A stretch of 63,419 nucleotides of DNA from a virus (Duplodnaviria > Heunggongvirae > Uroviricota > Caudoviricetes): the IMG/VR virus record IMGVR_UViG_2579778871_000002, one strand, 5' to 3'. Shown piece by piece: positions 41,377 through 44,992 of this stretch; the stretch's first letter is position 1, and every line of letters starts with the position of its first letter. The notes under the pieces were generated by a model, which saw only the letters and a list, made by a program, of their open reading frames with translations, ran no database searches and was not told the origin of the DNA. Position numbers and translations under genes: made by a program.

Positions 41377-41622
41377 TTGGCAGAACGTGTTGATGATGCA
41401 GAGCTGAGCATGAATCAGTTAGAAGCTCTCAAAGACATAGCCATCGATAACATCAGAAAGCAGGCACAGGTCGTGAGCCAGGTATTTACAGGGAAGTGTC
41501 GTTACTGCAATGAATCGATTGAATCAGGCATTTATTGTGACGCTGAATGTGCGCAATGGCACAGGGAAGAGCAGGCTGCAAAACAGCGTAAATATGGCAT
41601 GCGACCGGCAGGATTTGACTGA
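41377..41622 (+). CDS. TraR/DksA-type C4 zinc-finger protein
   Basis: 81 aa; CRYCNESIESGIYCDAEC. Confidence 0.5.
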   Translation: MAERVDDAELSMNQLEALKDIAIDNIRKQAQVVSQVFTGKCRYCNESIESGIYCDAECAQWHREEQAAKQRKYGMRPAGFD

Positions 41623-41624
41623 TT

Positions 41625-42203
41625 ATGTTGCGCTTTACTGAGGAAGAGTTTCAGGCTTTTAGTGAGCGTCGAAATAAGGGGCGGTCCAGGCCAAAAACCA
41701 AAAAGGATCCATTCTTATCGCTTGCGCCGGTAAAAGAAGTTTCTCCACATGCGAAGGCACTTGCAGCACTGGCAAAGAACCCAGACCTGCGCGACGGAAA
41801 TTGCGAGCACTTCGAGCAGGTTTTCATTTTTGATTACTTCGAACGCAAGCACCCTGACATCTATGAGCTGTTGCATGCAACGCCTAACGGAGGGAAACGT
41901 TCAAAAGCAACCGCCGGGAAAATGAAGGCTGAAGGGCAGAAAAAAGGTTATCCGGACATGAGTCTCGATAAAGCATGCGGTATTTATCACGGCATGCGAA
42001 TTGAGCTTAAAGAACCAAATGGTAAAGCCCCGACGAAAGAGCAGATCGCCTGGATGCGCAGGCTTAGAGAGGAAGGTTACTACGTCGTTCTTGCGTATGG
42101 TGCAGAACAAGCGATAACCGCCATCCTGGAATACATGAGCCTTAAAAAGGGTGAGGCTATTGAGCATGTATTGAACGGTGACAAGTGGTTGTACGCTACG
42201 TGA
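41625..42203 (+). CDS. VRR-NUC (PD-(D/E)xK) nuclease domain protein
   Basis: 192 aa; GYPDMSL...GMRIELKEP motif. Confidence 0.5.
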   Translation: MLRFTEEEFQAFSERRNKGRSRPKTKKDPFLSLAPVKEVSPHAKALAALAKNPDLRDGNCEHFEQVFIFDYFERKHPDIYELLHATPNGGKRSKATAGKMKAEGQKKGYPDMSLDKACGIYHGMRIELKEPNGKAPTKEQIAWMRRLREEGYYVVLAYGAEQAITAILEYMSLKKGEAIEHVLNGDKWLYAT

Positions 42204-42227
42204 AATAATAAATTAATTAGTGCATGT

Positions 42228-42425
42228 GTGCTCTTTGATATAGCGCACATTAACATCGGGAGAATAATCGTGTCATCCAAGGTTAATTATGAGTCGCTGG
42301 CATCGGTCATGCCGCGTAATGAACAGGAAACAGATGCTGTAGTGGACCCTGTAATCGCTGAAATGAATGCTCGCCTGGAGGCTGAATTTGCAGCTGAGAA
42401 TGAACATACCACCCAGGGCGACTAG
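42228..42425 (+). CDS. small acidic protein
   Basis: 65-aa ORF. Confidence 0.3.
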   Translation: MLFDIAHINIGRIIVSSKVNYESLASVMPRNEQETDAVVDPVIAEMNARLEAEFAAENEHTTQGD

Positions 42426-43029
42426 GACTGTTTTTTGTGTCGGTAGCGGTCCTTCACTCACTCGTGAGGACTGTGCTGCTATAGAAAAAACTGGCTGTTC
42501 AATCATCGCGGTTAACAATTCCTGGCAGATGTTCGATGACATTTATGCCTTATACGCCGGTGATTTGTCATGGTGGAAGCAATACGGTTCCACCATACCG
42601 GGAGGGAGGTTCCGCAAAGTGACAGCCAACCTGGCAGCGGCGAAATCATTTTCGTTGGAGTACAGGCGATATTGTGGACCGGCGGAAGGGGTAAATAGCG
42701 GCGCGCAGGCTATCAGTCTGGCGGCTGAATCAGGGGCTGAAGTAGTTGTATTAGTCGGCTATGACTGTTCTCTGCAAAACGGCCTTCATTGGCATGGGGC
42801 GCACCCTCAAGCACTACGGAATCCAACGCAGGTATCTATTTCAAAATGGCAACAGCAGTTCCTGGATACCCGCAAAAAACACGCAGATTTACATATTTTG
42901 AATGCAAGTAGGAGCAGTGCAATTCAATGTTTCCCAAGAATAAATTTAGAGGCAGTGATCGCGTTATTATCGTCGGCAGTGGCCCAAGCGCCGCAAACTT
43001 TGTTGCGCCGCGCGGAGTGCCGATTATAG
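42367..43029 (+). CDS. GxGPS-motif Rossmann-like protein, DUF115/CstII(GT42)-like glycosyltransferase fold candidate (likely start 42400)
   Basis: FCVGSGPSLT ... VVLVGYDCS resemble the recalled CstII/Maf motifs (IIAGNGPSL, SGIDFY). Confidence 0.4.
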   Translation: MLAWRLNLQLRMNIPPRATRTVFCVGSGPSLTREDCAAIEKTGCSIIAVNNSWQMFDDIYALYAGDLSWWKQYGSTIPGGRFRKVTANLAAAKSFSLEYRRYCGPAEGVNSGAQAISLAAESGAEVVVLVGYDCSLQNGLHWHGAHPQALRNPTQVSISKWQQQFLDTRKKHADLHILNASRSSAIQCFPRINLEAVIALLSSAVAQAPQTLLRRAECRL

Positions 43030-43553
43030 CGGTCAATGGGGCCATCGACTGGCTTAACCGCGCTTCTTATTTTTTCACACTTGATCCATCGTCAGACAAT
43101 ATGCGGCGCGTTGGTCGTGGCCGCCGTCGCCGTGGTGTTTGTTATTGCATGGCACTACCCGATGTTAAAGAACGTGAAGTCAGAGATGGCGTTCTGTGCT
43201 TCCGTCGTGTGGCTGAACGCGGCACGGAGCCTAAAAATACGAATTCTCCCGAGTGGTGGGCGTGGCGCTGGTCCGCACATTTCGGCCTTTGCGAAGATGA
43301 GAATGAAATTGCCAGCGGCAATAGTGCATATGGTGCTCTGAACCTAGCTTTCCATATCGGATTCAAACATGTAGCCCTGGTGGGCGTTGACGCTACGCAA
43401 GAACCACGCGTTCACTCCGGCGGCACGCCAAAAAATCTAAGTCACCTGCCTTTGTTATTCCAGTCTGCGCGTGAACAGATTGACGTTGTTTCATGCGGGA
43501 AAATGGGAGGTATTCCGCAGATGACTCTTAAAGAATGGCTGAAGAATACATGA
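42927..43553 (+). CDS. paralogous GxGPS-motif glycosyltransferase-fold candidate
   Basis: 208 aa; [10 protein letters not shown] ... VALVGVDAT; paralog of preceding gene. Confidence 0.4.
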
Positions 43554-44227
43554 TGGCACCCACAATTTATCACCGTATCGACGGTACCAAATACAGGAAT
43601 GTCTGGGTTGTTGGTGATCTGCATGGTTGCTACACCAGACTGATGTCCGAACTCCATCGTGTGGATTTTGACCCGGCGCAGGATTTACTGATATCGGTCG
43701 GCGACCTTATCGATCGCGGTACTGAAAATGTCGAATGTCTGGAACTATTGCAGATGCCCTGGTTCAGGGCAGTGATGGGGAACCATGAGCGGTTGATGCT
43801 CGATGCGTTAAGTCCTGATGGCAACGTGAATAACTGGCTAATGAATGGCGGTCAATGGTTCTTCATGCTGGACGCTGATCAGGAAATATTAGCCAGGGCG
43901 CTGGTGGAGTTGGTAAGACGACTGCCCTATATCATTGAGTTGAACACCGGGCAAGAAACTATCGTTATAGCCCATGCCGACTATCCGGATAATGAATATC
44001 AATTCGGTAAGGAGGTGCCGCTTTTCAACGTTGTCTGGGCGCGCGAGCGTATCAGTGATTCGATGGATGATATTGGTGGCGAAATTTCGGGCGCAGATCG
44101 TTTTATCTTTGGTCACACTCCGGTGAAAAGCCCGAAGACATTCTGGAATCAGCATTATATCGACACTGGTGCCGTATTTTGCGGAAACCTGACATTGATG
44201 AAAGTGAAAGGTGATGGTGCAGCATGA
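43535..44227 (+). CDS. Ser/Thr protein phosphatase (lambda-PP/calcineurin-like metallophosphatase)
   Basis: 230 aa; GDLHG, GDLIDRG, GNHE motifs. Confidence 0.8.
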
Positions 44228-44925
44228 AGATTGCTTTAGTTCTTCGCTCTGGTGGTGACTATAACGCTTCCGATGTGCAGTGGCTGGTTAATCAACTGCC
44301 AAAAGGCTATGAAATTATTTGCCTGACAGACCTGAAGCGTTTACATGTACCTGGTGTCAAAGTTGTCCCATTGATCAACCAGTGGCAAAAGTGCCGTGGC
44401 TGGTGGGCGAAAATCGAGTTGTTCCGACCGGATATAACCGATGATCTGTTCTATCTGGATTTGGACACGGTTATTGCCGGTGATATACGCCCAATCCTTG
44501 AGAATCCACCAAGCAGCTTCACCATGCTTAGGGATTTTTACCATCCACAATATCGTGGTAGCGGTGCACTGTGGATACCAAATAGTGTAAAAGCGCATAT
44601 CTGGAGTTCATTCTGGCAAGATCCGGAAGGTTGGATTTCTCGTTGTGTCACTACTGAGTGCTGGGGTGATCAGGGGTTCTTACGGAAGGTTATGGGCGAT
44701 GATACACCAGCATTTCAGGATCTGTATCCAGGATGGTTTGTAAGTTACAAGGCCGATGTTGTGGAACCTGGTTCAAAATATGCGAGCGCGCGTTACTCCA
44801 GGGGGAATGGGGCATTACCAAAGGACTGCCGAATAATTTTTTTCCACGGCAAACCGCGACCTCGCGAAGTGTCAGAGGATTGGCTTCCCCTTATCAGCTC
44901 GTTTTTTGAGCAAGAATCAGAATAA
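44224..44925 (+). CDS. GT-A-like nucleotide-sugar transferase candidate (DxD motif)
   Basis: 233 aa; FYLDLDTVI DxD-type motif. Confidence 0.4.
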
Positions 44926-44942
44926 TATTGCTCTAATAATTC
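44926..44942 (+). promoter_or_regulatory. C1 operator
   Basis: ATTGCTCTAATAATTCC 14/17. Confidence 0.6.
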
Positions 44943-44951
44943 CATATTTTT

Positions 44952-44979
44952 AAAACGTGATGTACACTCATCACGTTTT
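44952..44979. terminator. bidirectional terminator hairpin flanked by inward-facing operators
   Basis: AAAACGTGATG-TACACT-CATCACGTTTT (11-bp stem) followed by T-run. Confidence 0.6.
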
Positions 44980-44992
44980 TTATTAGAGCAAT
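44976..44992 (-). promoter_or_regulatory. C1 operator (inverted partner)
   Basis: Reverse complement ATTGCTCTAATAAAAAA 14/17. Confidence 0.55.

Follow-up and report, generated by a model that had tools for sequence, protein, structure and literature searches.

Background

The closest described relatives of the genes considered here are those of bacteriophage P1, a workhorse of Escherichia coli genetics about half of whose genes have no defined role, and of the P1-like phage-plasmids, which spread resistance genes. Our subject is a block of seven genes, pmgL-pmgM-pmgN-pmgO-pmgP-ppp-pmgQ, which occupies positions 41,377 to 44,925 of a 63,419-nucleotide stretch of DNA from a virus of the Caudoviricetes (IMG/VR record IMGVR_UViG_2579778871_000002); this whole stretch is called the window below. 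Our hypothesis, to which we would give a probability of about 0.4, is that three of these genes, pmgO, pmgP and pmgQ, form a cassette that may glycosylate a phage protein associated with the head.

Glycosylation of virions has a precedent in mycobacteriophages (Freeman et al. 2023, as cited in PMC11256854 and PMC12619734). As far as these citing papers describe that work, glycosyltransferases and methyltransferases of Che8 and its relatives have been proposed, or were shown, to decorate capsid and tail-tube proteins, and they are dispensable for growth.

The window is another P1-like element. Its segment 41200-45100 matches P1 and its relatives over the full length at 97-99% identity (megablast), and the block is 98.5% identical to P1 positions 78425-82325, where the gene names used here are annotated (AF234172); in P7 (AF503408) the same genes are called upf81.0, upf81.2, hdmA-D and ppp. 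Genes, gene order and regulatory sites are alike in P1, P7 and the window at 97-98.5% DNA identity, and nothing material differs. An earlier reading of this DNA, made from the letters alone without database searches (the sequence-only reading), described seven co-directional, mostly coupled genes. Indeed, all seven open reading frames (ORFs) are intact, co-directional and placed where that reading put them; pmgL and pmgM are separated by 2 nucleotides, and from pmgN onwards the genes overlap by 59 (pmgN/pmgO), 103 (pmgO/pmgP), 19 (pmgP/ppp) and 4 (ppp/pmgQ) nucleotides. The same reading had left it to a synteny comparison to decide between backbone and cargo, and the answer is clear: the block is conserved backbone of P1-like plasmids, not variable cargo, at least 80% of it being held by at least 530 P1-like plasmid records, nearly all at 95-99% identity. 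The genes are under purifying selection, with a ratio of nonsynonymous to synonymous substitution rates (dN/dS) of 0.09-0.17 where it is computable, dS being saturated for the remaining genes.

Names for these genes exist as well. RefSeq already refers to products of the P1 genes as VRR-NUC protein, alpha-2,3-sialyltransferase, metallophosphoesterase and glycosyltransferase, and the deposited function is 'putative morphogenetic' only in P1 and 'head morphogenesis' in P7. Thus pmgL-pmgQ is already annotated, and it is dispensable in the laboratory; what the present analysis adds to an annotated feature is a sharpened, testable hypothesis.

A portable cassette beside head genes

In our opinion three parts make up the block, not one pathway: pmgL-pmgM, the pmgN-pmgQ unit with the cassette as its core, and an inserted ppp. 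A distant P1-like contig (L048) has the order PmgM, a 90-amino-acid ORF, PmgO, PmgP and PmgQ, and ppp is absent between pmgP and pmgQ there, as it is in L006. In Citrobacter phage phiNP, PmgO-PmgP-PmgQ form a contiguous group that lacks ppp, pmgL and pmgM and has the lysis genes on one side and the terminase gene on the other, and phage D6 carries ppp in a neighbourhood of nin-like genes where the transferases are absent. The phosphatase gene is an independent insertion into the cassette in the P1/P7 lineage. In the loci surveyed, pmgL and pmgM occur with the cassette in P1-like elements only. This mosaic distribution of ppp, pmgL and pmgM leaves pmgO-(pmgP)-pmgQ as the conserved unit, and it suggests that these three sugar-transferase-like genes are a mobile cassette.

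The surroundings of this unit in other phages carry our argument. A scan of IMG/VR with a PmgQ profile returned 546 relatives, and 38 distant viral loci, 16 genome loci and 3 loci recovered via homologues were analysed. A DUF115-type (PmgO-like) and a GT8-type (PmgQ-like) gene lie inside a head-assembly cluster in 21 of the 29 non-P1 loci that hold both, some of the 21 being closely related to one another. The order there is TerL, portal, protease, major capsid, in some cases a small ORF, the PmgO-like gene, optional extra genes, the PmgQ-like gene and then head completion or connector genes. Pfam identifies flanking ORFs as Phage_capsid (13 in one scan and 2 in another), Phage_HCP (15) and HK97-gp10 (11), with CLP_protease and Phage_connect_1 also represented. 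Neighbouring genes overlap by a few bases, and therefore they would belong to the same late operon and be co-expressed late with the head proteins. Within or beside the cassette Pfam also finds genes of the glycan-tailoring kind: FkbM-type and other methyltransferases, GT2, GT7C, a sulfotransferase and PIG-L.

In 9 of the surveyed loci a small partner protein, conserved and of about 90 amino acids, with a DUF7210-like N-terminal domain, a motif near SASPAAPASPxQT and a basic tail, is encoded between the capsid and PmgO-like genes (as at L003:7311-7574 and L051:3511-3792). When IMG/VR was searched with this motif alone, 38 new loci with a confirmed relative were found (L109-L146), and in all 38 the PmgO-like gene is immediately downstream of the partner gene; a capsid gene lies upstream in 36, the remaining two starting too late to show it, and a PmgQ-like gene is also present in only 8. 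The cultured phage D3 has the order orf6 (capsid), orf6.5, orf7, connector, with the small protein at L147:4337-4624. Moreover, in several representatives of the PmgO family (P0377, P0383, P0399, P0410 and P0433) the N-terminal domain of the partner is fused ahead of the enzyme. The PmgO-like genes of PAJU2, Klebsiella jumbo phage Eowyn and E. coli phage EP_H11 are paired with other transferase-like genes and with methyltransferases, and every named bacterial host in the samples is Gram-negative.

What stays constant is a Maf-like enzyme linked both to head genes and to a small protein of the phage, and what varies is the set of second transferases and methyltransferases. This is the pattern expected of protein glycosylation by priming plus extension, and it is similar to the virion glycosylation known from mycobacteriophages. 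The sequence-only reading had left the substrate open between DNA, a virion protein and the host envelope; synteny now favours a head-associated phage protein over the other two, which is an argument and not a proof.

We mention separately that the PmgO homologue of PAJU2 (ORF010, L148:4474-5043) is labelled 'structural protein' in GenBank, and the Eowyn homologue likewise. If the label goes back to proteomics of virions, the enzyme may itself be associated with the particle.

The predicted enzymes

By its fold and motifs PmgQ (44224..44925, plus strand, 233 amino acids) appears to be a retaining GT-A glycosyltransferase of the GT8 type. Across 46 homologues D79-L-D81, K63 and D149 are invariant, and G148, Q150 and H208 nearly so. 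The profile of these homologues, compared with the PDB, finds the Skp1 alpha-galactosyltransferase 6mw5 (E 1.1e-8), glycogenin (4e-5) and GlyE (1e-4), and the positions of the DxD, K, DQ and H elements align with residues of glycogenin and Gat1. The AlphaFold2 model has a mean predicted local distance difference test score of 95.2, and its top 50 Foldseek hits in the PDB are all GT8 or GT8-like (E 1e-8 to 6e-7). A DxD-motif protein of GT-A-like type had been suggested from the letters alone, and this call can now be made more precise: the motif is DLD at 79-81, in a GT8 fold with all the catalytic motifs. Structure and profile comparison, the check on which the sequence-only reading had let its sugar-transferase calls depend, thus places PmgQ in GT8 and PmgO in the Maf/CstII fold. 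Homologue profiles were needed for this, as single-sequence searches of the PDB with PmgO and PmgQ gave nothing significant.

Solo PmgQ-like GT8 genes, 36-40% identical, occur in lambdoid phages and prophages of E. coli and Salmonella (L088, L054, L055, L059, L060 and L062), and no PmgO-like gene stands beside them within the stretches examined. In one of these, Escherichia phage Chlobot, the gene (L088:6001-6720) lies between integrase and tail-fibre genes.

PmgO (42367..43029, plus strand) and PmgP (42927..43553, plus strand) are paralogous, judging from their alignment by hhalign (98%, E 1.7e-13), and both contain the GxGPS motif as VGSGPS. The homologues of PmgO begin near Met12, so that its start is possibly at 42400 and not at 42367; neither candidate start has a good Shine-Dalgarno sequence. 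The 103-nucleotide overlap of the two genes is in different frames, and the non-conserved C-terminal tail of PmgO recurs in several relatives, therefore the overlap seems to be maintained. PmgP is the most conserved protein of the block: it has more than 300 homologues among those listed at 50% identity or above, from several orders of Proteobacteria, and its dN/dS against a 79%-identical relative is 0.09. The PmgO family comprises 3,763 clusters (50% identity) at E<=1e-10.

The two proteins have the fold common to Maf, CstI/CstII and MptE. The best fold matches of PmgO by both methods are Maf and CstII, with MptE and thiamine pyrophosphokinase (TPK) scoring almost as well; in the profile search against the PDB, CstII is reached at E 0.4-0.8 only. 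The GxGPS, N, SG and G-x-D positions of PmgO align with the nucleotide-sugar site of CstII, which binds a sugar activated by cytidine monophosphate (CMP). A conserved histidine follows GxD (H130/H132 in PmgO, H173 in PmgP), at a spacing unlike that of H188 in CstII. Hits to Pfam PF01973 are precomputed for several homologues, the representative P0171 scores 44.6 bits, and long PmgO-like forms scanned with Pfam contain no informative extra domain. We regard PmgO and PmgP as putative glycosyltransferases of the CMP-sugar type; the paralogy, motif and CstII/DUF115-like fold that had been read from the letters alone are all borne out. A third context of the family is seen in Pseudescherichia and related metagenome-assembled genomes (L095-L099), where solo PmgP-like genes are followed by genes for very large Big_1/Invasin_D3/RCC1-repeat proteins.

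Transcription units of the block

In P1 the cassette follows a late promoter and has tail/connector genes on one side and pmgR on the other. This late promoter, LPpmgL, falls at 41270..41288 (plus strand) in the window, by transfer of coordinates from the P1 annotation AF234172, in which its -22 element is also used by the divergent promoter LP26. Next to it is the C1 operator O26 (Op82) at 41303..41319 on the minus strand (ATTGCACTAATAATTTT, 2 mismatches to the consensus), which is annotated in P1 and P7 and overlaps the predicted sigma-70 promoters P1pmgL and P2pmgL (41280-41340). A second start of transcription is provided by the predicted promoter PpmgN (42171-42197, plus strand), which is accompanied by the C1 operator Oppp/Op83 (42210-42226, minus strand; CATGCACTAATTAATTT, 4 mismatches to the consensus); both are in the P1 and P7 annotations. 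The operator OpmgRa (Op86a) at 44927..44943 (plus strand, 3 mismatches, P1 annotation) is part of the next operon, pmgR-pmgS. Across the window 12 C1 operator-like 17-mers were observed and 0.34 would be expected by chance.

The pmgN-pmgQ unit is closed by an intrinsic terminator-like hairpin at 44952..44979 (plus strand), with an 11-base-pair stem, a 6-nucleotide loop and a U-run; its predicted folding energy is -13.4 kcal/mol (z -6.1), and none of 200 shuffled sequences is equally stable. The hairpin is placed exactly between Op86a and Op86b, the pair of C1 operators in the promoter region of pmgR (44927-44992); having A- and U-runs on either side, it may act in both directions.

The C1 operator-like sites by which the sequence-only reading had bounded the block are therefore real, at 41303-41319 on the minus and 44927-44943 on the plus strand. 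It had missed Oppp/Op83 and PpmgN between pmgM and pmgN, as well as LPpmgL and the hairpin. With an internal C1 operator and promoter and a terminator, the block must comprise at least two transcription units. Hence the idea of one seven-gene operon with a single purpose is not supported, given also that ppp is separable and that pmgL and pmgM do not travel with the cassette.

Proposed role

We propose the following scenario. PmgL and PmgM would be made from C1-controlled and late promoters, and their products most likely process branched DNA before packaging. The genes pmgN-pmgO-pmgP-ppp-pmgQ would act as a unit controlled by C1 at Op83 and ending at the terminator. After inactivation of C1, and again late, PmgO and PmgP would move a first sugar from a host nucleotide sugar to a serine or threonine of a protein of the phage particle. 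This acceptor is probably head-associated, and the donor is possibly a CMP-activated ulosonic acid such as Kdo (3-deoxy-D-manno-oct-2-ulosonic acid); as a speculation, CMP-Kdo is a plausible donor because K-12 is without CMP-sialic acids. PmgQ would then add an alpha-linked hexose from a uridine diphosphate (UDP) sugar, using Mn2+. The modification would be dispensable for plaques in the laboratory and would act on surface properties of the virion elsewhere.

It is perhaps too bold, and we ourselves rather doubt it, to suggest that P1 and thousands of other phages of Gram-negative bacteria carry an unrecognised protein-glycosylation system in which a Maf-like DUF115 enzyme primes a head-associated protein and variable enzymes extend the glycan. 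In such a system the priming sugar would possibly be Kdo from CMP-Kdo, the one CMP-sugar made by every such host. The primed protein of HK97-like phages such as D3 would be the small capsid-adjacent partner, and extension would be the task of the GT8 enzyme PmgQ, of GT9-like or GT2 enzymes or of methyltransferases. If this is true, virion glycosylation would be described for Gram-negative phages for the first time within the searchable literature, and the trait would extend beyond mycobacteriophages; the system would also give a function to 'pmg' genes of a paradigm phage and a chemistry to a very large family of uncharacterised proteins. Glycosylated particle proteins would be relevant to phage stability, to immune recognition in therapy and to engineering P1-based delivery particles.

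A number of observations weigh against our proposal. Which protein is the acceptor, which donors are used and in what order the enzymes act are all inferred, the acceptor from gene order alone. To our knowledge E. coli K-12 makes neither CMP-sialic nor CMP-pseudaminic acid, and the donor is therefore uncertain. In P1 the cassette is not adjacent to the capsid gene, and no small partner protein is encoded anywhere in the window; PmgN was considered as its counterpart and was rejected, as it has no similarity to it. A search of all ORFs of the window for acceptor-like tails rich in serine, alanine and proline met only tail-fibre repeats and non-coding frames, and the capsid C-termini beside the cassette are short Ser/Gly ends with no clear extension. 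Against Pfam, PmgQ finds no family at E<=1 and so misses the Glyco_transf_8 threshold, and PmgO and PmgP stay below the PF01973 threshold of 34.6 bits, at 23.4 and 21.1 bits. MptE and TPK, which are pyrophosphokinases, share the DUF115 fold, so that PmgO and PmgP may not be glycosyltransferases at all. The position of the solo PmgQ-like genes, which is that of lysogenic conversion genes, indicates that GT8 relatives may serve other acceptors, for example the core of lipopolysaccharide (LPS).

The published data on P1 also count on this side. No plaque phenotype follows from single deletions or from CRISPR interference (CRISPRi), save for the disputed pmgN. No plaque defect and no change in antirestriction were seen for 24 of 29 single-gene pmg/upf knockouts (Gonzales et al. 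2022, PMC9024508), and in Piya et al. 2023 the whole block of seven appears among the non-essential genes, with that study cited. The sequence-only reading had counted on deletions to reveal a phenotype or a modification; as regards the phenotype, the published knockouts show none in plaques or antirestriction. The CRISPRi screen (PMC10695390) likewise finds all seven non-essential except pmgN, and its authors flag the conflict with the deletion data: CRISPRi at pmgN reduced plating about 70-fold, whereas a pmgN deletion is without defect and silencing any one of the downstream genes makes no difference. The conflict may stem from polarity that affects the entire unit, from redundancy between the paralogues or from off-target action. 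Published proteomics of the P1 virion detected only PmgC and PmgG among the Pmg proteins and none of PmgL-Q, found no decoration protein and reports no glycan; the cryo-electron microscopy of P1 at 3.2-3.5 Å (PMC12810830) gives PmgL-Q no role and does not mention glycans.

A side result of the search for Ser/Pro-rich sequences is a repeated motif, xSPxLTGxPTAPTA, at 343-606 of the window, in a 494-codon open frame on the minus strand. It resembles the repeats of tail fibres.

Alternative explanations

The acceptor may lie in the host envelope instead of the phage particle. PmgQ together with PmgO and PmgP would then work on the cytoplasmic side of the membrane and add sugars to the LPS core or to another glycan linked to undecaprenyl or lipid A. 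The altered P1 receptor would block superinfection or stop the loss of progeny on cell debris. P1 adsorbs to glucose of the LPS core; receptor editing during lytic growth would be the wider meaning of such a result. We agree that GT8 includes enzymes of LPS core synthesis, that PmgQ aligns with E. coli WaaO across DxD, DQ and H, that LgtC is among its fold matches and that solo PmgQ-like genes have the integrase/tail-fibre position of conversion genes in Chlobot and similar prophage contigs. However, the P1 unit is behind C1 operators and should be off in lysogens, the pair of PmgO-like and PmgQ-like genes is mostly packed translationally inside the late head operon and not in the position of a moron, and LPS synthesis offers no role for a small phage protein that is linked, and in some cases fused, to the enzyme. 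PmgO and PmgP also show a weak collinear resemblance to the Kdo transferase WaaZ, but this kinship was rejected as too weak (E 0.1 with NCBIfam, a probability of 11-14% by hhalign against K-12 WaaZ, neither being significant). On balance we consider an envelope acceptor unlikely. More sceptically, one may hold that PmgO and PmgP are enzymes of the MptE or thiamine-pyrophosphokinase type, or assembly factors without catalytic activity, and that the block is a set of unrelated accessory genes that share no product. The Pfam family hit, below threshold, bears indeed the name of MptE, CstII is found at high E values in the PDB profile search, and ppp and pmgL-pmgM are demonstrably independent modules. 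Yet the genes with which PmgO-like genes are paired time and again encode bona fide glycosyltransferases (GT8, GT2 and GT1-like) and methyltransferases of the sugar type, Maf and CstII are the top fold matches by both methods, and the GxGPS, N, SG and GxD positions fit the CMP-sugar site of CstII; we find this view harder still to accept.

Two further explanations place the target in the host proteome or in the phage DNA. That the transferases glycosylate, and Ppp dephosphorylates, host proteins of translation, stress response or defence in favour of lytic growth would agree with the C1-controlled early promoter, with a protein phosphatase embedded in the unit and with the fact that the closest solved relatives of PmgQ (Skp1 alpha-galactosyltransferase, glycogenin, GlyE) and of PmgO (Maf) act on proteins. 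We think it quite improbable nevertheless, as the position in the head operon and the pairing with a small phage protein elsewhere suggest a phage target, as ppp is outside the conserved cassette, and as there is no growth phenotype on K-12. The lowest credence of all goes to glycosylation of DNA, by which P1 DNA would be hypermodified against restriction or other nucleases, with the VRR-NUC protein as a DNA-directed partner. P1 DNA can be restricted, and cutting and cloning it is routine. The adjacent nuclease gene could be taken as support, and phage GT-A enzymes, some of them GT8-like in structure, do glycosylate 5-hydroxymethylcytosine (bioRxiv 10.1101/2023.12.21.572611). But no hydroxymethyl-pyrimidine synthase, TET/5mYOX or similar gene is beside the cassette in any surveyed locus, antirestriction is unchanged in the deletions (PMC9024508), pmgM is not with the cassette outside P1-like elements, and a PADLOC search for defence and anti-defence genes gave no hits.

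Neighbouring genes

PmgL (41377..41622, plus strand) is an 81-amino-acid Cys4 zinc-ribbon protein, putatively of DksA/TraR-like type, with a CxxC (C41, C44) and a CxxxC (C54, C58) pair; it matches PHROG 54, 'DksA-like zinc-finger protein', at E 9.2e-12, and gives no hit to Pfam zf-dskA_traR, only a weak treble-clef match. PmgM (41625..42203, plus strand) is a VRR-NUC (PD-(D/E)xK) nuclease with an N-terminal extension of 75 amino acids. It aligns with the solved VRR-NUC protein 4qbl at E 8.1e-17 across the GYPD and IELK motifs and with PHROG 5702, 'Holliday junction resolvase', at E 5.9e-27, and its Pfam VRR-NUC score of 21.2 bits is just under the cut-off of 23.8; from these similarities it is probably a junction-resolving or debranching nuclease. 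Three plasmid hits (H71-H73) and phage phi456 (H19) are without the first 690 nucleotides of the query (the region 41200-41890 of the window), and so lack pmgL and the 5' portion of pmgM; some P1-like elements of this kind carry an annotated insertion sequence in the matched region, and pmgN-pmgQ is kept.

PmgN (42228..42425, plus strand) is a small acidic protein of 65 amino acids if it starts from the GTG at 42228; P1 annotates 51 amino acids from 42270. It belongs to PHROG 2350, of unknown function, and is confined to P1-like elements in the loci surveyed. Ppp (43535..44227, plus strand) is a Ser/Thr metallophosphatase of the lambda-phosphatase/NinI type, which matches lambda phosphatase 1g5b at E 1.4e-94 and Pfam Metallophos with 59 bits (cut-off 21.5) and has the motifs GDLHG, GDLIDRG and GNHE. 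The nuclease and phosphatase assignments of the sequence-only reading hold up in these comparisons, and its zinc-finger assignment agrees with the PHROG match.

Comparison with known systems

Compared with the mycobacteriophage systems, where glycans have been proposed or shown to decorate virion proteins, the P1 cassette is one for which no glycan has been observed. In the cluster F1 mycobacteriophages, according to the same citing papers, the genes lie near the right end of the genome and not in the head operon, and the hosts are actinobacterial. Phage DNA glycosyltransferases and prophage genes for conversion of LPS or O-antigen are also phage-borne GT-A enzymes, some GT8-like, and the solo PmgQ-like genes are placed like conversion genes. 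Unlike the DNA-glycosylation and Gtr-type systems, the cassette comes without partners for base hydroxymethylation and without a membrane flippase or other Gtr-type partners, and the P1 unit is repressed by C1.

With regard to the enzymes, PmgO and PmgP are single-domain proteins of about 200 amino acids, whereas Maf has 632, and their sequence similarity to Maf and to the GT42 enzymes CstI and CstII is below significance; the spacing of the catalytic histidine of CstII differs as well. The usual donors of Maf and GT42, CMP-activated pseudaminic, legionaminic and N-acetylneuraminic acid, are not made by E. coli K-12. PmgQ is predicted to share with the GT8 enzymes (glycogenin, Gat1, GlyE, LgtC, WaaO/WaaJ) the GT-A fold, DxD, lysine, DQ and C-terminal histidine; it differs from the known ones in being shorter and in having a distinctive N-terminal VLRSGG motif.

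Finally, the remaining genes of the block recall the nin region of lambda. Ppp is a close homologue of NinI, the lambda phosphatase (64% identity according to the P1 annotation), PmgM is of a phage junction-nuclease type akin to the Rap/NinG-type nucleases of that region, and a DksA-like zinc finger is common there too. Unlike in lambda, these genes are scattered in P1 around the putative glycosylation cassette and stand under C1 and late control.

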